From: an uncultured Pseudomonadales bacterium
GTDB taxonomy: Bacteria; Patescibacteriota; Microgenomatia; UBA1400; UBA1449
Assembly (NCBI GenBank): GCA_964386355.1
Contig: CAYLQQ010000002.1
Coordinates: 45,374-109,373 of the forward strand
Length of the DNA: 64,000 nt
Reading direction: 5' to 3'
Positions 1,895 to 49,619 of the stretch are shown here, piece by piece; position 1 is the stretch's first letter, and every line of letters starts with the position of its first letter. The translations under genes were made by a program, and so were the position numbers. Below the pieces are notes generated by a model. It did not search any database. It had not been told where the DNA came from and was given only the letters and a program-made list of their open reading frames with translations.

Positions 1895-4150
1895 TCAATA
1901 CTCCGGAAGGATATTATAAACAATTGTTCCCTCGTATAGATCAGATGGCTGAAGATAATTTACCTCTATTGCATAGCTTACATAAACCGTTTTTTCTTCA
2001 GCTTCTTGTGAGGACATGACGCTGTGTGAGATGGTGCTTAAAGGACCAAATTTTGCTGATGCATTTGACCACCCCTCCACTCTTGTATCAGATGTATTTA
2101 CGCCCACCCAGCCCGTATTAACGTTCCGTACTATGCCATTTGGTGCTGACCATATTTGTGGGGTTTGCCATGTGACAGAAGTTGCGGCAAATTCATCAAT
2201 ATTATTATCGGGGTAGTTCCCCTGCATTTGATTATACAGTTTGACGCTAACATCATAGCCATAGTCTGTATTGCTGTTTACCGTCAGCTTGTGAGATCCG
2301 AACTTCGGTACGCCAACACTGAGATTACCGAATGGAAGGGTAGTGTGGGTTGTGTTTATATTTGTTGTAATTCCGTTGTTTGAAGTTCCTGTAGGTACAC
2401 CTTCGATAGCAAAAGATAAGCTAGGAGTAGCTCGATGGTATATATCAAATGTTTGTCCATCACTTTGTACTGCTGAAAATGATTGTAGAAGCAAGAGATC
2501 TGAATATATGGTTTGCTCAATGGGGTATGTTGTATAGTCGCCTGCGGTTTTATTGATTCGGATGTAGTACAGAGGATGTCCACCATTTACGGTTGATTTA
2601 GTCCATTCATTCGGAACAGTATAGTACACATTTCCAGCACTTGTAAATGTGCTAGCTCCTGAGTTGCTATTAGATATTGCAAGGGTAGACCAGGTATCAC
2701 AAGGAGTATTGATATCCAAGTTTGAGCCGCAGTAAGACCAAACGGTTATAATACCAGAACCTGCACCTTTGGTTTGTAGTTGGGTATTTACACCGCTAAA
2801 CTGCGTGTGATTACCCAGGTAAAGGTAATCATTAGAATTGTCAAAAATCTGGTAGCTGCCCTGATCAAAACTGGCATTATCTTGACTATCAGCCAAGTAC
2901 TCATTTGTATCAGATGCCAAGCCACCTCTTGCCAGCTGTTTCCAGGTGTTTGAGCTGTCATAAAACCAAGCTTGTGAAAATGGTATTAAATTGGCATTAT
3001 AATCTGTATTGATCGTACGGTTTGTGCCTTCGATAGAGAAATTGGTTGGTACATTGCTTGTGCGCCAGTTTCTAAATTTGAATATAGGGGCATATCTTGA
3101 GTACGTTTCCCCATCCAAATTAAAAGAAATTATATTGTTTGAAGTTATTAGCGGGTAACTGTTTTGGGTTTGGTTAAAGTAGTCGCTTTCTCCTGTATTG
3201 GTAAACTCACTAGCAGAACTCCAGGCTGAACCTACAGATATTTTGCCAAATAAGCTGTCTGGTTGCCATAAATCTACAGCATAGCTTTTTGCTTCATTAC
3301 CGCTTAAGCTATTATCGTCAGTAATCTGAAAAACATAAGTATACGTATATGACTGTCCTCCAGAAAGACTATCATCAGTAATCAAACCGGCTGTAATTAC
3401 ATTTTCATCATTCTGGTATAAAAATTCATTATTTGGGAAAAAGCTGGGTACTTCTAGGGCATGTATCATGTAATCATTATCAGTACCGGTAGCTGGGTCA
3501 GAACCGGTGAGTGTTAGGCTAATCCCAGGAGCTGTGTATGTAATGTCAGCCACGCTCTGAATAGCTGCGCTTGGTGTGACGGTACCAGGAGCTGTATCAT
3601 GATCAGAAATAAAAGCATTTTCATCAAATAAGCTTGGTGCAAACGAAATGTAAGGTCCAGTCATTCCAGTACCAGCTGTGGATGAGCTAAAGGCACCATG
3701 CACCACAATCCTATCGGGATATATGGTATAGATTTGGGTATATTCTCCATCATTACTAGAACCGCAAGCTCCGTCTGTAAAATCATAGAGATCCCCGCTT
3801 ACTGAGATGACAATTCTTGTTTGAGTAGATTCCAAAAGGTGTATTGAAGCATTACTTTCACAAAACATGCTGTTTGTATCTCGTGTGACTAAACCCATTC
3901 CATATAACCGATTTGAAGTGCTACTAGTATCGATAATATTAGTGCTGCTTGAGCTGGGAATAACTAAGCTCGATAGTACTCCCCCGAGATCGCTCCTAAA
4001 CGTTGCTTTCCAGCTCGGGGTGGAATTACTGTTAACAACAATTGTGGTTGCAGTTATAGAGTCTACGCTCACTGATGCGGCATATACTTGTTGAGTGCAG
4101 GTCAGAAAGGTGAACGATATGAGAAATAGAAAGATACATGTTAATCGCAT
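1895..4150 (-). CDS. Large secreted surface protein with a C-terminal domain paralogous to the neighbouring 369-aa protein (WxL-like, tentative)
   Basis: Sec signal peptide (MRLTCIFLFLISFTFLTCTQQVYA/AS) and a Ser/Thr/Asn-rich beta-type composition. The last ~185 aa align with the C-terminus of the 4229..5338 product (TLPFGNLSVGVPKFGSHKLTVNSNTDYGYDVSVK...NTGWVGVNTSD...YVSYAIEVNYLQPSDLYEGTIVYNILPEY). Confidence 0.7.
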   Translation of the reverse strand: MRLTCIFLFLISFTFLTCTQQVYAASVSVDSITATTIVVNSNSTPSWKATFRSDLGGVLSSLVIPSSSSTNIIDTSSTSNRLYGMGLVTRDTNSMFCESNASIHLLESTQTRIVISVSGDLYDFTDGACGSSNDGEYTQIYTIYPDRIVVHGAFSSSTAGTGMTGPYISFAPSLFDENAFISDHDTAPGTVTPSAAIQSVADITYTAPGISLTLTGSDPATGTDNDYMIHALEVPSFFPNNEFLYQNDENVITAGLITDDSLSGGQSYTYTYVFQITDDNSLSGNEAKSYAVDLWQPDSLFGKISVGSAWSSASEFTNTGESDYFNQTQNSYPLITSNNIISFNLDGETYSRYAPIFKFRNWRTSNVPTNFSIEGTNRTINTDYNANLIPFSQAWFYDSSNTWKQLARGGLASDTNEYLADSQDNASFDQGSYQIFDNSNDYLYLGNHTQFSGVNTQLQTKGAGSGIITVWSYCGSNLDINTPCDTWSTLAISNSNSGASTFTSAGNVYYTVPNEWTKSTVNGGHPLYYIRINKTAGDYTTYPIEQTIYSDLLLLQSFSAVQSDGQTFDIYHRATPSLSFAIEGVPTGTSNNGITTNINTTHTTLPFGNLSVGVPKFGSHKLTVNSNTDYGYDVSVKLYNQMQGNYPDNNIDEFAATSVTWQTPQIWSAPNGIVRNVNTGWVGVNTSDTRVEGWSNASAKFGPLSTISHSVMSSQEAEEKTVYVSYAIEVNYLQPSDLYEGTIVYNILPEY

Positions 4151-8164: not shown

Positions 8165-11973
<3,809 letters not shown>

Positions 11974-19929: not shown

Positions 19930-21810
19930 TTAATTATTTTTTACAAATAATCCAAGTATAGGCTTTTCTGTACTTTTAAAATCCTCGCTTTTCATCTGCA
20001 CTGACTGCGTGTTTGATCCGGCATTGAAGTTGATCCAGGCTTGCTCAAGTAAGCCTTCATCAACATAGGTCGGAATATTAAATAAACTTCCAAATGGCGG
20101 GACGGAACCGGGTCGTAAGCCCGTGACCTTTAGTAACGTATCCTTATCTACTAGAGCAACATCTTTAAATCCAGTTGCTTGCTTAAATGCTTTTAGGTCA
20201 AGTTTAGATGCAGCTGAGACAACAACCATGATGGGTTTGCCATCAGCCATACAAACCAAGGCTTTAGCACCGGATTCTATGGAAGTTCCTCTAGCTTGTG
20301 CGGCCTCTTCGCTGGTAAACACAGGTTTATGCTCGAATTTCTTGTACTCAACTTTTTCATTATCTAAGTAATTGCAGATCTGCTCAAAGATCGATTTAGA
20401 AGTAGTCTGTTTCATAGAGCGGATCTGAATACCCAGCTCTTTCATCTGTTCTTCTGAGATGGGGCTGGGGGCATCCATCACTGCCGTTCTACCTGTTGAG
20501 GTCATCGGGAAGGCAATTGCCTCTTTAAGAGAGCTTTGGTTACTTAATAGCATGACAAACCTGTCTAAACCCAATGCTAGACCACCATGTGGCGGAGTTC
20601 CAAGACGAAACGCTTCAAGCATATGACCAACTGATGCTTCAATTTCTTCTTTAGAATATCCCATTATCTCAAACGTTTTATAAAGAGCGTTTGGGTTATG
20701 TGCCCGGATAGATCCTCCACCCATTTCGTATCCATTACAAACAAGGTCATATTGTGTTGTGAGAATATTCTCAATATTTTTCCCTTCCAGATGATCGGCA
20801 ATAAACTCATCTTTAGGCTGAGAAAACGGGTTGTGAGTGAATGTCCAGCCGCTTTTACCGTCACGCACCTCGGCCACGTCTTCTTTATTTACTTTCTTGA
20901 AAAATGGAAAGTCTACTACCCAAGCAAAAGCTAATACTCCATCCTTCTTTTCCTGTTCCGTTCGGATATCAAACCTGTCTGCACCATAGGTTTTAATAGC
21001 TTCATCATAAGTAATTATGGGAAATTTCCCTTCTCTTAGTTTACCTCCTACAGCCAAGATTGCTGCTTTGGTAGCCTGTTCAACCATTTCCATTACGTCC
21101 TCTCGTTTGACAAAGGACATCTCCAAATCAAGCTGGGTAAACTCAAATCCCCGGTCAGCCCGCAGATCCTCATCGCGGATGCAACGGGCAATCTGGAAAT
21201 AGCGTTCAAAGCCGGCTGTCATCAAAAGCTGTTTGTACTGCTGGGGTGATTGGGGCAAGGCATAGAACTTGCCTGGTTGGAAACGGGAAGGAACCACAAA
21301 ATCTCGGGCGCCTTCTTTGGTTGATTTGGTCAGCATGGGTGTCTCGATCTCGACAAAATCATTGGCAAATAAAGACTTGCGGAACTCTTCGATGAGCTTA
21401 CTTCGAAGCCTGATTGCTTTTTGCAGACGCTCACGTCGAAGGTCCAGGTATCTGTATTTTAACTTGAGCTCTTCATCAAGTTGAGTGCCATCAGTATCTA
21501 TGGGGAAGGGTAGTTCTTTGCATTCATTTAACAGGCTAAATGATGATGCTTGAATTTCGATTGCGCCGGTAGGAAGGTCTTTATTTACCATTTGCTCGGG
21601 ACGGTTATTAACTATACCGACTACTTCAACCACATCTTCCTGACTGAGTTTTCCCATTTTTGAGTCGCCCACTACCTGCACCTTGCCCGATCTATCGCGA
21701 AGCTCGATGAAAACTAATTTGCCGTGATCGCGGACCGTATCAACCCAACCTTGTAGCAAGATCTCCTCACCAATCTTTTTAAATGTTTCAAGTGCGAGTG
21801 TGCGTTTCAT
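19930..21810 (-). CDS. aspS: Aspartyl-tRNA synthetase (bacterial-type core without the GAD insertion) fused to a C-terminal YbaK/ProX-like aminoacyl-tRNA deacylase domain
   Basis: OB-fold N-terminus (LQGWVDTVRDHGKLVFIELRDRSG), FYALPQSPQQYKQLLM, motif 2 YFQIARCIRDEDLRADRGFEFTQLDLEMSF, motif 3 GGLALGLDRFVMLL. The last ~155 aa (...KFEHKPVFTSEEAAQARGTSIESGAKALVCMADGKPIMVVVSAASKLDLKAF...LRPGSVPPFG...) fit the YbaK-family pattern. Confidence 0.9.
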   Translation of the reverse strand: MKRTLALETFKKIGEEILLQGWVDTVRDHGKLVFIELRDRSGKVQVVGDSKMGKLSQEDVVEVVGIVNNRPEQMVNKDLPTGAIEIQASSFSLLNECKELPFPIDTDGTQLDEELKLKYRYLDLRRERLQKAIRLRSKLIEEFRKSLFANDFVEIETPMLTKSTKEGARDFVVPSRFQPGKFYALPQSPQQYKQLLMTAGFERYFQIARCIRDEDLRADRGFEFTQLDLEMSFVKREDVMEMVEQATKAAILAVGGKLREGKFPIITYDEAIKTYGADRFDIRTEQEKKDGVLAFAWVVDFPFFKKVNKEDVAEVRDGKSGWTFTHNPFSQPKDEFIADHLEGKNIENILTTQYDLVCNGYEMGGGSIRAHNPNALYKTFEIMGYSKEEIEASVGHMLEAFRLGTPPHGGLALGLDRFVMLLSNQSSLKEAIAFPMTSTGRTAVMDAPSPISEEQMKELGIQIRSMKQTTSKSIFEQICNYLDNEKVEYKKFEHKPVFTSEEAAQARGTSIESGAKALVCMADGKPIMVVVSAASKLDLKAFKQATGFKDVALVDKDTLLKVTGLRPGSVPPFGSLFNIPTYVDEGLLEQAWINFNAGSNTQSVQMKSEDFKSTEKPILGLFVKNN

Positions 21811-21849
21811 ATATCTCCTTTAATCATTAATAATTTGAACAATAGGTAC

Positions 21850-22003
21850 AAAAAAACCGCCATAGTTCCCCATCAAAAAGGGCCAATCTGGCGGTACCAC
21901 CTAATTCTTTACTTATCCTGCTATTACGGGCTTACCCGTTCCGGTTATTACTCCGGACAGCTCGTCCTTTGTCAGAGGACTCAGACGCTTGTATGATTTA
22001 TTA
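21850..22003 (-). promoter_or_regulatory. T-box-like tRNA-sensing leader of aspS (specifier GAC) with intrinsic terminator
   Basis: The minus strand carries AUUAGGUGGUACCGCC (T-box sequence). It overlaps a terminator CCGCCAGAUUGGCCC...GGGGAACUAUGGCGG+U7. A 5' hairpin GUCCU-CUGACAA-AGGAC carries the Asp codon GAC followed by A. A TTGTAT-17-TATAAT promoter lies just upstream (-10 at 22010..22015). Confidence 0.75.
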
Positions 22004-22064
22004 GTAATAATTATAAAATATGAGGGAAAAAAATACAAACTGAAATCAAAACCTAATTTAATTA

Positions 22065-23097: not shown

Positions 23098-24843
23098 TTA
23101 TTGTAGGTCTTTTACTATTAATTGTATCTTTTGTTTACTATTCCACTCATTCAAATCTATCTGGTATGCAAGATCGATTTTGTCACCCAGTTTATGTGTT
23201 TTGATGGAGTCGGGAGCGTTGAAGTAAAGGGTATCGTAAGTAGTTGTTGGTTGTAGGTTGTTGGTTGTAGGTGAAACCATAAGTTTATAATGCTGGCCGG
23301 ATTTGCCCATAGGATACAGCCCTTTTAATTCGATTCCCTTGGTTACAAATACAGGTTTTTGGTTTCCCATCCCAAAAGGTGCGAACTTTTCAATTTCTGC
23401 ATACAGGTCCATAGTAATATCTTCAGTCTTAAGTTCTGTTTCTGCTTCTAATGAAGGGACAAGCAATTTTTCATCAATATGTTCCTGAGCGTATGTTTGT
23501 AGCTTTTGAGTCAGATTCTTTATGTTATCTGTAGCGACACTAAAGCCCGCAGCCATGGGATGTCCACCAAGCTCCAGGAACTCCGTTTCAAATACGCGTA
23601 AAATTTCTATGATATTGACACCGGGAACCGAGCGGACTGAGCCTTTGGCAAAGCCGTCCATGATGGCTATAGCAATGCTTGGTCGGGCGAACGTTTCTGT
23701 GATTTTGCCGGCAATCAGTCCGATCACGCCGGCATTATACTGCTTGGATGAGATAATGATGATTTTGGGAATTGGTGTCTTGTGCTGAATGCTTTCAATA
23801 ATTGGCTGTAGATTATCATTGGTCAGTTCCTGACGCTGCTTGTTGGTTTGGCCAAGATGAAAAGCCAGCTCAATTGCCCGCTCCTGTTTACGTGTACAAA
23901 GTAAGCGTAAAGAATCAATTGAGTGTTCAAGCCTCCCGCTGGCGTTGATACGGGGAGCAATGACAAAACCGATATGGTATGTGGTCAGGGGTTTTTGGGG
24001 ATCAATACCAGCATCAGCCATAAGAGCTTTAAGACCGGGTCTGGTAGTTTTTGGGAGCAGTTGCAGGCCGCGCTTGACTATCTGGCGGCTGGGACCAAGT
24101 AGGGGAACAAGGTCGGCGATGATACCAATTGCTGCCAGCTCTACCAATGAATTTAATATCTCTTCTTTCTTGGATTGCTCGGTTTTAAAAAATGATAATA
24201 TTTCCTTTGCGAATATGTAAGCAACGCCTGCACCTGCAGTTTGAGTAGTATGGACAATGGCAAGACATTTAGGGAATTTGGTCTGTGATGTATTTTCAGG
24301 GAACCTGTTTGAACCCGGGATTGGCTCATGGTGGTCGCAGATAATGAGGTCTATTCCCTGCTGCTTACAAAACCCTGCCCCTTCAAAGGCCACAATGCCG
24401 TTATCAACTGTGATGATTAGTTTGGGCTTACCATGCTCAGAAATTGCATCTTCAAGTGATCTTGGTTTTATGCCATAGCCATGTTTTTCACGGTGAGGCA
24501 AAAACGGCAGAACCTCAAAACCTAAAAAATGTAAGGTTTCCCACATGATAGCAGTAGAGGTAACCCCATCTGTATCGTAATCTCCGTAAATCAGGATCTT
24601 TTCATCATTGATCTTAGCCTTTTTTAGCCGTTCCAAAGCCAGTTTGAGCTGCTGAAGGTCAATACCCAAGTCTTTTGGTGTTATATCATGAGGGTTAGTA
24701 TCATTAAAAAATTGATCGCGTTTCTTTTGTGTTTCAAGACTTCTATTTTTTAATAATATATCAATGATAGCCTGTTGCCGGTTGAAAGCATTTTGGGGTA
24801 TCTGGTGTTTAGTGATCCATTTTTTTTGCATATTCTTATACAT
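23098..24843 (-). CDS. recJ: Single-stranded-DNA-specific exonuclease RecJ
   Basis: DHH-family motifs IYGDYDTDGVTS and ICDHHEP, a DHHA1-like GGHPMAAG motif, and ~580 aa length. Confidence 0.9.
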   Translation of the reverse strand: MYKNMQKKWITKHQIPQNAFNRQQAIIDILLKNRSLETQKKRDQFFNDTNPHDITPKDLGIDLQQLKLALERLKKAKINDEKILIYGDYDTDGVTSTAIMWETLHFLGFEVLPFLPHREKHGYGIKPRSLEDAISEHGKPKLIITVDNGIVAFEGAGFCKQQGIDLIICDHHEPIPGSNRFPENTSQTKFPKCLAIVHTTQTAGAGVAYIFAKEILSFFKTEQSKKEEILNSLVELAAIGIIADLVPLLGPSRQIVKRGLQLLPKTTRPGLKALMADAGIDPQKPLTTYHIGFVIAPRINASGRLEHSIDSLRLLCTRKQERAIELAFHLGQTNKQRQELTNDNLQPIIESIQHKTPIPKIIIISSKQYNAGVIGLIAGKITETFARPSIAIAIMDGFAKGSVRSVPGVNIIEILRVFETEFLELGGHPMAAGFSVATDNIKNLTQKLQTYAQEHIDEKLLVPSLEAETELKTEDITMDLYAEIEKFAPFGMGNQKPVFVTKGIELKGLYPMGKSGQHYKLMVSPTTNNLQPTTTYDTLYFNAPDSIKTHKLGDKIDLAYQIDLNEWNSKQKIQLIVKDLQ

Positions 24844-28778: not shown

Positions 28779-30809
<2,031 letters not shown>

Positions 30810-32995: not shown

Positions 32996-35290
32996 ATGTA
33001 TTGGGCAGATAAAATCGCAGATCAGATTGTAAAAAGTGGACAGCATAAACCATACTGGGTTGATGATATGAAAACCCCCTCTGGAAGGATTCATGTTGGG
33101 TCTTTACGGGGTGTGTTGATACATGATTTTGTCCACAAAGCTCTTATGCATCAAGGAAAATCCTCGACTTTTACGTATGTGTACAACGACATGGATCCAA
33201 TGGATGCATTACCGGGGTACTTAGATAAAGATGTTTATACTCAACATATGGGTAAGCCTCTGTATAAAATACCTGCACCTGAAGGTAACAAAAGTTTTGC
33301 TCAGTATTATGCCGATGAGTTTACTGGGGTTTTTAATCGCCTTGGGGCAACTCCCAAGATAGTGTTGTCGCATGAGCTGTATGAATCCGGCCAGATGAAT
33401 CCTCTTATACAGATAGCTTTAGATAATGTTGAAGAGTTAAAACACATTTATCGCGACATTGCTCATTACGAATTAGAAAAGAACTGGTATCCATTTCAGG
33501 TATTCTGTGAGCACTGCGGAAAAGAGGGTTCTACTACAACCTATCATTGGGATGGTGAGTATGTATATTACCGATGTGAAAAAAGTAAAGTAGAATGGGC
33601 TGTTGGCTGTGGTCATGAGGGCAAGGTTTCACCCTTTAACGGTACCGGTAAATTTCTTTGGAAAGTTGACTGGCCAGCTCACTGGAAGTTGATTGGTATT
33701 ACTATTGAAGGTGCTGGAAAGGATCATACTTCAGCCGGAGGTTCCCGTGATATGGCTCGGGAAATTGTGAAGCGTGTTTTCAAATACCCTGAGCCGTATG
33801 ACATCCCTTATGAGTGGTTGCTTATCCGTGGTGCCAAAATGTCTTCATCTAAAGGTATTGGAGCCTCTGCTAAAGAGTTTGCTGATCTTTTACCTCCGGA
33901 AGTGGGTAGGTTCTTGTTTGCCCGTACCCATTGCAATACAGTAATCGATTTTGATTTAGTTGGTAATACCATCCCTGATCTATTTGATGAATATGACAAA
34001 TGTGCACAGGCATATTTTAGTGGTAAACAAGATATGTATGCCCGGATTTATGAAGCTTCACAAGTGACTGATAAAAAATCAGATCCCGTATTTTTACCAA
34101 GATTTAGAGATGTAGCAATGTATAGCCAAATGCCCAGCGTTGATCTGATTGCAAAATTTGAACAGGTAAAAGGTTCTATCTTATCACCTGCAGAAAGGCA
34201 TATCCTGGAAGAGAGGGTAAATTACGCAAAGAAGTGGATTAAAAACTATGCTCCGTCTAATTTGAACTTTCAACTCTCAGATAACTCAACTCAATCTGTA
34301 ACACTTAATCAAAAACAGAAAGATTATTTAGGCTCTGTAATAGCGTTATTACAGAAAACATGGAATAAACCGGAAGATTTTCAATTTGAGCTGTTTGAAG
34401 AAACAAAACGACTTGGAATTTCAGCCAAGGAAGCTTTTGCTGCCATTTATCAGATACTGTTAGGTAAGAATTTTGGTCCTAAAGCAGCATGGTTTCTGTT
34501 GGAACAGGATAAAGAAGAGTTAATTAAGCGATTTAGCGAGGTGATAGGAGAAACTAATAAAAGTGATGTATCCATTTCCCAAACTTTTCCAACAATTACT
34601 GACTCAAAGATGATACAAATCAGTACAGCCATTGCACATCAATACCCTTCAGTGCATATCGGGTTTGCCATTATCAGAGGCATACAAGTGGTCAAAACCA
34701 ATGAACAGCTAGAACAAGAAAAAGAAACCCTATATGCAAAACTAAAAAGCATGACGACAGAAGAGATTGGCACTATGCCAGAGATCTTAAGTTATAGAAA
34801 AATGTACAAACAAATGGGGGTAGATTGGCATTCCAGAAGGCCTAGTCCAGAAGCTTTACTACGCCGTATCGTACAAGGCAAGGATTTGTATGCTGTAAAT
34901 ACTTGCGTTGATGCGTACAACCTGATTGTGATGAAATATAGAGTAAGTGTCGGGACATTTGACCTAAAAAATTTGGATTTTCCGGTAGAACTGTGTGTTG
35001 CGAAGGGTGGAGAAAAGATATTGCTTTTGGGCAATGATGAAGAAACCGAAATAAAAGCAGGTGAAGTGTATTATCAAGATCAAACTGGACCATACAATCT
35101 AGATTATAACTACAGAGACTCTCAGCGGGTGAGTGTGAATGAAGACACTGAAGACATTATGATCAACGTTGATGGCGTGTATGATGTTGGTAGACCACAT
35201 GTAGAAAGAGCACTGAAAGAGACTTTAGAGATTATCAAAAAGTACTGCGGTGGAGTGATAGAAGTCGCTGGTATTATTGAAGCGAAATAA
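32996..35290 (+). CDS. lysK: Class I lysyl-tRNA synthetase fused to a C-terminal B3/B4 (PheRS-beta-like, COG3382-type) domain
   Basis: Class I core: PSGRIHVGSLRGVLIHD (HIGH-type), GKDH, KMSSSKG (KMSKS). The C-terminal ~228 aa (34604..35287) read ...ILSYRKMYKQMGVDWHSRRPSPEALLRRIVQGKDLYAVNTCVDAYNLIVMKYRVSVGTFDLKNL...YNYRDSQRVSVNEDTEDIMINVDGV, the B3/B4-domain family pattern. Confidence 0.85.
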   Translation: MYWADKIADQIVKSGQHKPYWVDDMKTPSGRIHVGSLRGVLIHDFVHKALMHQGKSSTFTYVYNDMDPMDALPGYLDKDVYTQHMGKPLYKIPAPEGNKSFAQYYADEFTGVFNRLGATPKIVLSHELYESGQMNPLIQIALDNVEELKHIYRDIAHYELEKNWYPFQVFCEHCGKEGSTTTYHWDGEYVYYRCEKSKVEWAVGCGHEGKVSPFNGTGKFLWKVDWPAHWKLIGITIEGAGKDHTSAGGSRDMAREIVKRVFKYPEPYDIPYEWLLIRGAKMSSSKGIGASAKEFADLLPPEVGRFLFARTHCNTVIDFDLVGNTIPDLFDEYDKCAQAYFSGKQDMYARIYEASQVTDKKSDPVFLPRFRDVAMYSQMPSVDLIAKFEQVKGSILSPAERHILEERVNYAKKWIKNYAPSNLNFQLSDNSTQSVTLNQKQKDYLGSVIALLQKTWNKPEDFQFELFEETKRLGISAKEAFAAIYQILLGKNFGPKAAWFLLEQDKEELIKRFSEVIGETNKSDVSISQTFPTITDSKMIQISTAIAHQYPSVHIGFAIIRGIQVVKTNEQLEQEKETLYAKLKSMTTEEIGTMPEILSYRKMYKQMGVDWHSRRPSPEALLRRIVQGKDLYAVNTCVDAYNLIVMKYRVSVGTFDLKNLDFPVELCVAKGGEKILLLGNDEETEIKAGEVYYQDQTGPYNLDYNYRDSQRVSVNEDTEDIMINVDGVYDVGRPHVERALKETLEIIKKYCGGVIEVAGIIEAK

Positions 35291-46345: not shown

Positions 46346-47008
46346 TTATTTGCATAGAACAAACATATTTGATAGGTTTCTGATCAGCTTTATATCAGAA
46401 AAATGTTTTTCAAGCTGTTTGATCAGCTTGGGAACCTTTTGTTTGTATTGGTCAAAGAAGAGATGATTAACCAGTAATTGACCTTGGGGATTAATAGTGT
46501 GTCTTATTTTATCTAGAAATTGTGTTTGATATAATTGCTTAGGTATCTCATGACCCTGGTACAGATCTACCAAGACTAGATCGTATTTCTGATTACAGTT
46601 TTGTATCCAGTGAAAACAGTTAGATTGAATTAGTTGTAAGGAAACAGAATTATTATTACGTACAGTTCTAAAATATTTTTCATAGATTACAATCATGACC
46701 GGATCTATTTCAATGCCTGTGATTTGGGCATTGGGGAATTTTTTAAATAGGAGTTGGGCAGCGGTACCACCGCCAAAGCCGAGGATCAATATTTGTAAGG
46801 GTACATCATGATGCACCCCTACTGATTTCAATGGTTTCTGCCATAGGTCTTTGATAATACTTCCGGATTGCAGCAGGCCTCCAGCATAAATTTTCCGCTG
46901 CCCAAATTGTTCGACAACCATAACCTCCCCGTTATACTGAGAATTGTATGTTTCTATTGTGTTTGGGAATAAAAATTTAGATGCTTTACTTAGAACCATA
47001 GTACTCAT
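46346..47008 (-). CDS. Spermidine-synthase-like class I methyltransferase-fold protein
   Basis: ILILGFGGGTAAQLL (motif I), ITGIEIDPVMI and LVDLYQG, as in spermine/spermidine synthase-like proteins. Confidence 0.6.
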   Translation of the reverse strand: MSTMVLSKASKFLFPNTIETYNSQYNGEVMVVEQFGQRKIYAGGLLQSGSIIKDLWQKPLKSVGVHHDVPLQILILGFGGGTAAQLLFKKFPNAQITGIEIDPVMIVIYEKYFRTVRNNNSVSLQLIQSNCFHWIQNCNQKYDLVLVDLYQGHEIPKQLYQTQFLDKIRHTINPQGQLLVNHLFFDQYKQKVPKLIKQLEKHFSDIKLIRNLSNMFVLCK

Positions 47009-47779: not shown

Positions 47780-49048
47780 TTATCTAATGTTCTCTTTACC
47801 CATGTACGATTGTAGTACTTTTGGTACATATACCGATCCATCTGCTTGTTGGAAATTTTCCAAAACTGCAATTAGAATCCTCGGGCTGGCAATAGCAGTA
47901 TTATTGAGCATGTGGACAAATTTTATTTGGCCATCCTTGGCTTGGTACTTAACATTTGCTCGTCTTGATTGGTACTCACCCATCATTGAGCAAGACATGG
48001 TTTCACCATACTCCTGCCTTCCGGGCATCCAAGTTTCGATATCATACTTTTTGACTTGAGGCTCACCCATATCGCCAGTACACATAAGTAACACGTGATA
48101 TGGGAGACCTAATTCCTGAAGAATTTCTTCTGAATATGATCTTAGATTCTCATGCCATTTCTTTGATTCTTCCCAGTCATTTTTACATATAATAACCTGT
48201 TCAACCTTAGCAAATTCATGAATGCGGTAAATTCCTTTTGTATCTTTGCCGTAACTACCGATCTCCCGCCTGAAGCACTGGCTATATCCTGCATACAACT
48301 TTGGCAGTTCTTTTTCTGGTAAAGTTTCATCCATGTGGTATGACACAAGCGGAACTTCGGCTGTACCTGCCAGGTAGCGGGCATCCTGATTGTCTTTATC
48401 ATCATATGTTTTGTAGACATCTTCTTTACCCCAAGGGAAATGGGCAGTGTTGTAAAACGGACGTTCGAGTAAAACAGTGGGAGGAATTACCGGAGTGAAG
48501 CCTTTTTCTATTAATTTTTTTAGTGCAAATTGCAGAATTGCCAAGTGAAGTAGGGCACCATCTCCCTTTAGGTAATAACCTCGAAATCCTGCAACCTTTA
48601 CACCCCTGTCCATGTCAAGTATTCCTAGGTCTAAACCCAGTTGGATATGGTCTTTAGGCTGGAAATCGAACTTGGTAGGCTCCCCCCACTTTGAGATCTC
48701 AATGTTACCGCTGCTGTCTTTACCAATGGGGACTTCTGGAGCAGGGACGTTTGGAATAGTGAACATCAATCTATCATATTCCTGTTCAACCTCTCTCAGT
48801 TGCGGTTCAAGGGCTGCTAATTGGTCTTTGAGTGCTTTGCCCTGGTCAATTATCTCCTGACTTGGTTTGCCAAACACCCCTTTCATCAGGTCATTGCGCT
48901 GCTTGCGAATTTCTTCAGTTTGCTTAATTAAGCTGCGTCGTTTCTCATCAGCTGCTAATAGTTCGTCTATGGTATCTTTGACACCTTTACTTGCAGCAGC
49001 CTGCTTGACCAAGTCTTTGTTGTCACGGATGAATTGGATATCTAGCAT
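47780..49048 (-). CDS. serS: Seryl-tRNA synthetase
   Basis: N-terminal coiled-coil arm (MLDIQFIRDN...), motif 2 FRREIGSYGKDTKGIYRIHEF and motif 3 region LNNTAIASPRILIAVLEN. Confidence 0.93.
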   Translation of the reverse strand: MLDIQFIRDNKDLVKQAAASKGVKDTIDELLAADEKRRSLIKQTEEIRKQRNDLMKGVFGKPSQEIIDQGKALKDQLAALEPQLREVEQEYDRLMFTIPNVPAPEVPIGKDSSGNIEISKWGEPTKFDFQPKDHIQLGLDLGILDMDRGVKVAGFRGYYLKGDGALLHLAILQFALKKLIEKGFTPVIPPTVLLERPFYNTAHFPWGKEDVYKTYDDKDNQDARYLAGTAEVPLVSYHMDETLPEKELPKLYAGYSQCFRREIGSYGKDTKGIYRIHEFAKVEQVIICKNDWEESKKWHENLRSYSEEILQELGLPYHVLLMCTGDMGEPQVKKYDIETWMPGRQEYGETMSCSMMGEYQSRRANVKYQAKDGQIKFVHMLNNTAIASPRILIAVLENFQQADGSVYVPKVLQSYMGKENIR

Positions 49049-49131: not shown

Positions 49132-49300
49132 CCAAAAACCGCCACTAACCCTATACGTAAAAGGGCCAATATGGCGGTACCACCTTTATTTTGTCGCTAA
49201 AAGCATCGCTTTTAACTTCCTCAACCTGCTGTAACGGGCTTACCCGGGCTTGCATTTCCTCAAGCCAACTCGACAGTTGGAAGCTGTCTCAAATGTTGTT
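49132..49300 (-). promoter_or_regulatory. T-box-like tRNA-sensing leader of serS (specifier UCC) with intrinsic terminator
   Basis: The minus strand carries AAAGGUGGUACCGCC (T-box sequence). It overlaps the terminator CCGCCAUAUUGGCCC...GGGUUAGUGGCGG+U5. A 5' hairpin GACAG-CUUCCAA-CUGUC carries the Ser codon UCC followed by A. It shares the CGGGUAAGCCCGU(U/A)A.AGCAGG block with the aspS leader. Confidence 0.75.
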
Positions 49301-49316
49301 ATATATAGATACTATA

Positions 49317-49619
49317 TCACCTATACCATCTTAATTCCAACGCTGTGATATCAACAGCTGGACATCCACAGGTAGCGTATTTTTCCTGATCGCCAAACGG
49401 ATCGATTGTAATGATACCCATCGTTGGGGTGTTTTTTGAATTTTCTCTAAGCTCTTGTTGTGCAAGATATGCTTTAAAATCCTCAGGTAAGCAAGTAGTG
49501 TCCATTCTGGTTAATTGTGAAGCTTTTTGATGATATTCTTGTTGCTCAAACAATGCCCATAAACAAATATTGCCATTTGTGACTGCTAATCTACGAGAAC
49601 ATTTTTGTTCAACTGACAT
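49317..49619 (-). CDS. Hypothetical Cys-containing small protein
   Basis: 100-aa ORF with no family recognised. Confidence 0.4.
   Translation of the reverse strand: MSVEQKCSRRLAVTNGNICLWALFEQQEYHQKASQLTRMDTTCLPEDFKAYLAQQELRENSKNTPTMGIITIDPFGDQEKYATCGCPAVDITALELRWYR

Follow-up and report, generated by a model that had tools for sequence, protein, structure and literature searches.

A short-Stem-I T-box leader with a predicted transcription terminator upstream of aspS in a bacterium of the Candidate Phyla Radiation

T-box riboswitches that act on transcription generally need a long Stem I that bears an elbow-binding platform for tRNA, and an ultrashort Stem I is associated with translational control in Actinobacteria (PMC7583486; PMC11297988). 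A 64,000-nucleotide (nt) stretch of DNA from a bacterium of the Candidate Phyla Radiation (CPR), here called the window, raises the question of whether a leader without such a Stem I can be a T-box, and which step of gene expression it would control. On the minus strand, the region between recJ (23098–24843) and the aspartyl-tRNA synthetase (AspRS) gene aspS houses a T-box-like leader at 21850–22003, which an earlier note on this DNA had read as an ultrashort-Stem-I T-box that uses transcription termination. We conclude that the leader is a T-box, not a categorically new element, and that it is an unusually minimal terminator-coupled variant. As far as sequence can tell, it probably works as a short-Stem-I riboswitch by transcription attenuation; the earlier proposal is borne out at this level by a second copy upstream of serS, specifiers that track the downstream gene, covariation, a terminator followed by seven U residues (U7) and a free Shine-Dalgarno sequence. 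The features of the locus are listed below with the evidence for each; R1 is a covariance model described further on.

22010–22038, minus strand: predicted promoter-like site, TTGTAT (22038–22033), 17-nt spacer, TATAAT (22015–22010); direct reading
21981–21989, minus strand: 5′ strand of a kink-turn (K-turn), C-stem AGC (21989–21987), bulge GUCU, GA (21982–21981); pairs with GCU 21961–21959, covariation
21964–21980, minus strand: ultrashort Stem I, GUCCU / CUGACAA / AGGAC, 5 bp and a 7-nt loop; reading, R1 and covariation
21959–21963, minus strand: 3′ strand of the K-turn, GA (21963–21962), C-stem GCU (21961–21959); reading and covariation
21940–21957, minus strand: truncated Stem II, UCCGG / AGUAAUAA / CCGGA; aligns to the lower helix of the actinobacterial Stem II and covaries
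21917–21938, minus strand: Stem IIA/B element with F-box-like CCGUAA, CGGG-UAAG-CCCG then UAAUAGCAGG; matches GCCCGNNAYAGC
21903–21916, minus strand: linker AUAAGUAAAGAAUU, 14 nt, purine-rich, in the position of Stem III; flanking purines kept, no helix
21879–21902, minus strand: T-box/antiterminator, A1 AGG, bulge UGGUACC (21899–21893), A2 GCC, loop AGAUU, GGC, CCU; reading and folding
21850–21895, minus strand: intrinsic terminator, ACCGCCA…UGGCGGU with an inner CCC/GGG helix, then U7; folding and relatives
19930–21820, minus strand: Shine-Dalgarno sequence AAGGAG (21820–21815) and aspS open reading frame (ORF; 19930–21810), encoding a 626-amino-acid (aa) AspRS; reading and NCBIfam

The sensor lies close to the promoter. 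The −10 box of the promoter proposed in the earlier note is present and perfect; its −35 hexamer, TTGTAT, is weak, with 3/6 matches to TTGACA, which is why a consensus scan did not list the site. Transcription would start near 22003. A K-turn of the form AGC-GUCU-GA / GA-GCU stands at the base of Stem I, the hairpin GUCCU-CUGACAA-AGGAC that had been described at 21980–21964. Its loop contains GAC, the aspartate codon claimed as the specifier, at 21973–21971, and the next nucleotide is indeed a purine, A21970. The aspS leader has no long Stem I, specifier internal loop or distal elbow platform (AG bulge and distal loop). The promoter sites leave only ~14 nt 5′ of the K-turn in this leader, and ~6 nt in the serS leader described below, which is too little for a long Stem I. 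The sequence as read and these predicted promoter positions together establish that Stem I is short.

Two further elements of the earlier note are present and can now be named. The second hairpin, UCCGG…CCGGA, corresponds to a truncated Stem II with an 8-nt purine-rich terminal loop in place of the S-turn internal loop and the distal helix. The conserved block ACGGGUAAGCCCGUAAUAGCAGG at 21939–21917, which includes CCGUAA, is the Stem IIA/B element; the pattern that it matches, GCCCGNNAYAGC, is common to actinobacterial and canonical T-boxes, and helix IIA (CGGG/CCCG) is present and invariant. Neither sequence reading nor RNAalifold gives a Stem III helix in the aspS leader, and aspS and serS relatives that lack Stem III carry comparable linkers with AAGUA or GAGUA (AAGAUA in L002). 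From the K-turn through the antiterminator, the leader spans ~111 nt. A three-way-junction fold, in which the minimum free energy (MFE) structure pairs GCUGU with AUAGC, was considered and dropped; the K-turn C-stem AGC/GCU covaries instead. There may also be an extra CUG/CAG contact with the conserved GCAGG.

The T-box sequence AUUAGGUGGUACCGCC (21905–21890) overlaps a strong terminator hairpin (21895–21856), as had been claimed and as both reading and folding confirm. The terminator and the antiterminator are mutually exclusive, with ACCGCC and the 3′ strands of A1 and A2 common to both. The canonical antiterminator fold of the aspS leader has a free energy of −2.8 kcal/mol, compared to −18.0 for the terminator hairpin (tail UUUUUUG) and an MFE of −22.1 for the whole platform, so that the default state would be off, as it is for all T-boxes. 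The U7 run ends at 21850, and the Shine-Dalgarno sequence AAGGAG lies 30 nt past it, in neither switch helix and followed by an ATG. Helix A1 covaries in relatives (AGA/UCU in L204), and the terminator helix is conserved in five leaders analyzed with RNAalifold. When 15 of the 16 non-actinobacterial leaders were scanned automatically, 13/15 had a terminator-like hairpin with a U-rich tail, and L205 has one by eye; the layout of a hairpin followed by a U-run also recurs in L001, L002, L004, L006, L156, L185, L204 and L205. Intrinsic-terminator-like signals are present elsewhere in the genome, as indicated by a strong 12-bp terminator-like hairpin on the 3′ side of recJ (22245–22219, minus strand; AAAACCUCCUUGG UUU AAGGAGGUUUU). 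The energetics, the hairpin with its U-run, the terminators of relatives and of this genome, and the position of the Shine-Dalgarno sequence outside the helices together point to transcription termination as the regulated step.

A search for the T-box word brought up a second leader in the window, at 49134–49300 on the minus strand, with the same order of elements. The gene below it, serS (47780–49048), encodes seryl-tRNA synthetase (SerRS; TIGR00414, serS equivalog, 464 bits).

49134–49340, minus strand: serS leader including its promoter-like site; R1 32.2 bits, RF00230 50.2 bits

The promoter-like site is TTGGAA-18-TATAGT with an upstream TG, and the K-turn C-stem is AAC/GUU. Stem I, GACAG-CUUCCAA-CUGUC, has the serine codon UCC (49281–49279) in the position of the aspS GAC, and is followed by Stem II (GCUUG-AGGAAAUG-CAAGC) and a IIA/B block that is the same as in aspS. 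Unlike the aspS leader, the serS leader has a Stem III (AAAAGC-GAU-GCUUUU). Its T-box bulge, UGGUACC, is at 49182–49176 and its terminator is followed by U5; the antiterminator and 5′ terminator sequence is nearly identical in the two leaders (GGUGGUACCGCCAKAUUGGCCCUUUU). The nearest named SerRS homologues, at 71–85% identity, are from metagenome-assembled genomes of Candidatus Beckwithbacteria and ‘Patescibacteria group’ bacteria, and by these best hits the window most likely comes from a CPR bacterium akin to Beckwithbacteria.

Membership in the T-box family was assessed with R1, which was built from 53 actinobacterial ileS T-box leaders alone, taken from among the matches listed in a pattern scan of species-representative genomes. 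In this training alignment the known structure is 94.6% paired, compared to 24–51% when the partners are slid. The two best matches in a search of both strands of the 64 kb with filters off were the serS leader, at 32.2 bits (E = 1.2e-6), and the aspS leader, at 23.2 bits (E = 1.9e-4); the next match had an E-value of 1.7. R1 aligns both leaders end to end, placing GAC and UCC on the AUC columns. At gathering score, Rfam reports no T-box in the whole window. With a relaxed threshold RF00230 matches the serS leader at 50.2 bits (E = 2.7e-10), its gathering score being 93.

We then looked for related leaders. Among AspRS relatives in metagenomes most have no leader, and seven have one (L001, L002, L004, L006, L019, L020 and L069). 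A genome scan added, among the matches listed, L092 (Candidatus Paceibacteria), L100, L156 (Patescibacteria UBA1370, AspRS 64% identical) and L185 (Defluviitaleaceae, a Firmicute); NCBIfam identifies the genes downstream as aspS for L092, L100 and L156, and as tyrS for L185. SerRS homologues yielded three further serS leaders, L203, L204 and L205. The genome pattern scan returned mostly actinobacterial ileS leaders, canonical T-boxes of Firmicutes and Chloroflexi, and false positives in coding sequence, and is no gauge of how prevalent the class is. Viral contigs scanned for the lineage-specific IIA/B block gave none.

The earlier note had proposed to judge its reading by covariation among homologous leaders and by whether the loop triplet follows the identity of the downstream synthetase; both came out in its favour. 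The triplet is GAC in 11/11 distinct aspS leaders, which come from diverse contigs and two types of AspRS, and UCC in 4/4 serS leaders; the single tyrS leader has UAC and the 53 ileS leaders have AUC. All specifiers have C as their third base and precede a purine (GAC-A, UCC-A, UAC-G for tyrS, AUC-A or AUC-G for ileS), as reported for T-box specifiers (PMC7583486). An apparent serS leader without a serine codon, L205, was rejected as such: R1 had misplaced Stem I, and the true one is GGGAG-AAUCCAA-CUCCU. In L205 (9789–9830, plus strand) and L156 (382–470, plus strand) extra hairpins separate the K-turn GA from the 3′ C-stem strand and so convert the K-turn to a junction, and it is because of these insertions that R1 misassigns Stem I in both.

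Stem I, Stem II and the K-turn stem all covary. Fitted to the model, an alignment of 10 non-actinobacterial leaders has 86.9% of its cells paired, compared to 31–45% with slid partners, and 19/21 pairs change on both sides, including all five pairs of Stem I and all five lower pairs of Stem II. The K-turn C-stem is 96.7% paired in these leaders, with compensatory changes; its variants are AGC/GCU, AAC/GUU, GGC/GCC and ACC/GGU. As an alignment fitted to a model leans toward that model, a model-free check was made with MAFFT and RNAalifold on five leaders of this lineage. It found 10 compensatory pairs and recovered the stem of the K-turn, Stems I and II, IIA and the terminator: the C-stem changes from GC to AU, four of the five Stem I pairs and four pairs of the Stem II mini-hairpin are compensatory, and IIA is invariant. 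In the four serS leaders the Stem II loop AGGAAAUG is invariant while its stem varies (GCUUG/CAAGC, AAGAG/CUCUU, ACUUG/CAAGU), and the invariance of the loop despite a wholly changed stem points to a functional loop. The S-turn is kept in the relatives L004, L069, L092 and L100. Conserved elements and covarying stems across relatives argue for purifying selection on the RNA.

Several of these leaders have features of their own. In the tyrS leader L185 (7507–7690, plus strand), Stem I is GAAAG-AGUUACGC-CUUUC and carries UAC, Stem II is a mini-hairpin (GGGA-UUAUU-UCCC), and there is a terminator; the occurrence of this minimal layout in a Firmicute indicates that the class is not confined to CPR bacteria. 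Two aspS leaders, L001 (9799–9990, plus strand) and L020 (9810–9990, plus strand), are more reduced than the one in the window: they keep Stem I with GAC and the T-box, which in L001 is the variant GGUUGGCACC, and have seemingly lost the IIA/B block. On a CPR-like metagenome contig, L063 (5470–5745, plus strand) has a T-box, GGUGGUACCGCG, and a terminator with U8 upstream of a small Cys-rich ORF, a TrpB-like gene and tyrS. Its 5′ domain is longer and different, its R1 match is weak (15 bits) and it falls below the Rfam gathering score.

From these comparisons the following mechanism can be proposed. By default, the strong terminator with its U7 run would form during transcription and halt RNA polymerase before aspS. 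When uncharged tRNA-Asp accumulates, its anticodon GUC would pair with GAC in the Stem I loop, held in place by the K-turn, and its free 3′ NCCA end would pair with UGGU of the T-box bulge. This contact would stabilise the weak antiterminator (A1 AGG/CCU, A2 GCC/GGC), which would capture the 5′ strand of the terminator and allow readthrough into aspS. With charged tRNA the contact could not be completed and termination would win. What the sequences show directly is the elements themselves, their covariation, the match of specifier to gene and the mutual exclusion of the helices; that tRNA binds, which way the switch is thrown and what the reduced elements do are inferred.

Several observations weigh against transcription attenuation by a short-Stem-I T-box, or limit what the comparisons say about it. 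R1 also matches canonical long-Stem-I T-boxes, at 25–60 bits; since these have Stem II, IIA/B and the T-box as well, R1 tests the family and not the class. An RF00230 scan, which had also been suggested in the earlier note, gave no match for the aspS leader at E ≤ 10 in a 451-nt region, where the Rfam matches at that threshold are noise (idnO, snoRNAs and a TMV pseudoknot). However, at its gathering score RF00230 also misses a control, the Mycobacterium colombiense ileS T-box, as it does all other short-Stem-I leaders tested, so that its silence on aspS is a problem of sensitivity rather than a negative and is not counted against membership. Within the leader, the K-turn bulge is 4 nt, not 3, and IIB (UAAGC/GCAGG) has just two possible Watson–Crick pairs (GC/GC); this helix covaries in relatives, with pairs such as UGAGC/GCUCA and UACGC/GCGUA, as well as in Actinobacteria. 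The aspS leader has U as the variable base of the T-box, where 11 other aspS and serS leaders have C. As tRNA-Asp and tRNA-Ser usually have G73, C fits, and U would give a G–U wobble. A tRNA-Asp gene was sought in 12 loci and none was found, and neither the window nor the related loci hold a tRNA-Asp or tRNA-Ser gene. Lastly, the whole-leader MFE is unremarkable (z = −1.46), and the T-box word GGTGGNACCGCG, with up to two mismatches, is not over-represented, having 4 matches in the window against 3.7 expected; those at 46760 and 36044 lie inside coding sequence and were set aside as chance. These last two results would suit ordinary promoter-proximal hairpins and a terminator that resemble a T-box by chance, an explanation that the R1 E-values, the second cognate copy, the conservation in orthologous leaders and the covariation make extremely improbable and effectively refute.

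A further objection is that the leader has no elbow-binding platform, S-turn or Stem III. These elements are reported to matter for the binding of tRNA or for the kinetic competence of T-boxes that act on transcription (PMC7583486), and their absence puts the speed of tRNA capture in question. Together with the weak IIB helix and the reduced genomes in this group, it would also be expected of a leader that has decayed into a fixed partial terminator without tRNA sensing, or in which a protein or cofactor has replaced direct tRNA capture. However, the genome has two copies whose codons differ and each fit their gene. Relatives whose SerRS or AspRS is only 58–85% identical conserve the specifier, the T-box bulge, the Stem II loop and the IIA block, and their stems covary; we consider this reading quite improbable. 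Likewise unlikely is a T-box whose control lies chiefly at the level of translation or mRNA stability, with the hairpin and U-run not being the regulated step. In favour of it, the leader has the architecture of the actinobacterial short-Stem-I ileS T-boxes, which are treated as translational (PMC7583486; PMC11297988), and the U-tract after the hairpin is interrupted in L019, L020, L092 and L100. Nevertheless, the Shine-Dalgarno sequence is not paired with the switch, and the competitor of the antiterminator is a GC-rich hairpin that runs into U7 in aspS and U5 in serS, a layout that recurs in the eight relatives named above. We thus retain transcription attenuation as the likely mode of action of the aspS leader.

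The closest known relatives of this architecture are the ultrashort-Stem-I ileS T-boxes of Mycobacterium and Nocardia, the ‘class II’ of TBDB (Sherwood et al. 2015, as described in PMC7583486). Like these, the aspS leader has a K-turn with a covarying C-stem, a specifier that precedes an A in the apical loop of a 4–5 bp Stem I, a Stem II immediately downstream of the K-turn, a CGGG..GCCCGUNAYAGC IIA/B block and a UGGNACC bulge. It differs in that its platform is an intrinsic terminator with a U-run instead of a sequestrator of the Shine-Dalgarno sequence. The actinobacterial S-turn (AAGAAC / AGUAGAA) supplies a purine string, whereas the aspS Stem II consists of 5 bp and an 8-nt loop. In addition, Stem III is absent from aspS, IIB is nearly unpaired and A1 and A2 each have only 3 bp. 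The genes involved are aspS and serS (tyrS in the Firmicute), and the host is a CPR bacterium, not an actinobacterium. With canonical transcriptional T-boxes (RF00230; the Bacillus tyrS/glyQS type) the leader shares the T-box sequence, the competition between antiterminator and terminator, the K-turn, the F-box region and a cognate specifier that ends in C and precedes a purine. In contrast to these, it has no long Stem I, specifier internal loop or distal interdigitated T-loop platform. T-boxes of the glyQS type that lack the Stem II domain are also naturally reduced transcriptional T-boxes and indicate that modules can be dispensable. However, glyQS retains the platform of a long Stem I, and Stem III as well, and does without Stem II and IIA/B; the aspS leader does the reverse, its Stem II and IIA/B being vestigial.

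The K-turn flanking Stem I and the absence of Stem III go beyond what the earlier note had described, and together with the other reductions they suggest a more general proposition, for and against which we see about equal chances. It holds that there is a natural class of very small transcriptional T-boxes (~110 nt of sensor, 140 nt with the terminator), which decide co-transcriptionally with only a K-turn-mounted specifier loop, a vestigial Stem II and IIA/B and a T-box bulge, which regulate several aminoacyl-tRNA synthetase (aaRS) genes in CPR/Patescibacteria and at least one Firmicute, and which are invisible to the Rfam model. A terminator-coupled short-Stem-I T-box that is conserved, with covariation, on aspS, serS and tyrS would break the correlation between an ultrashort Stem I and translational control. 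If such leaders exist and work unaided, they would overturn the elbow contact as a requirement for the kinetic competence of transcriptional T-boxes; if they do not work unaided, a helper would be implied, such as a K-turn-binding protein or a slow or paused RNA polymerase. They would offer a minimal natural scaffold for asking which contacts co-transcriptional tRNA sensing needs, and a compact part for engineered tRNA-responsive switches. For CPR bacteria, the sequences suggest that aaRS genes may be regulated by tRNA sensing. Our literature search found no paper that ties T-boxes to CPR lineages; an earlier mention of terminator-coupled short-Stem-I T-boxes in the older literature is possible. 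The TBDB class II model was searched in Actinobacteria only, and class-I hits with a truncated Stem I are mentioned (PMC7778990). As standard Rfam annotation misses the class, T-box regulons in uncultivated lineages are probably under-counted.

The gene downstream of the leader is aspS, as had been stated: the product of the ORF at 19930–21810 (minus strand) matches the NCBIfam aspS equivalog at 591 bits. This AspRS is a fusion of a short catalytic core (~aa 1–465) with a C-terminal YbaK/tRNA_edit domain (PF04073; ~aa 480–614). The bacterial insertion domain is apparently missing, as the aspS hidden Markov model matches in two stretches. Few AspRS relatives (L001 and L009) align to the end of the query (~residue 618), most stopping at ~residue 463, and the exact AspRS sequence is known from Logan assemblies of two runs only.

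Elsewhere in the window, the plus-strand gene at 32996–35290 encodes a class I (archaeal-type) lysyl-tRNA synthetase of 764 aa, which exceeds the 515-position model by ~250 aa; in its upstream region, R1 with filters off found no T-box. No further aaRS gene was found beyond one end of the window. Three long ORFs, at 1895–4150 (minus strand, 751 aa), 8165–10555 (plus strand, 796 aa) and 28848–30809 (plus strand, 653 aa), have no NCBIfam match at E ≤ 1e-10, and the 653-aa ORF has a Big_1 domain among precomputed Pfam hits.

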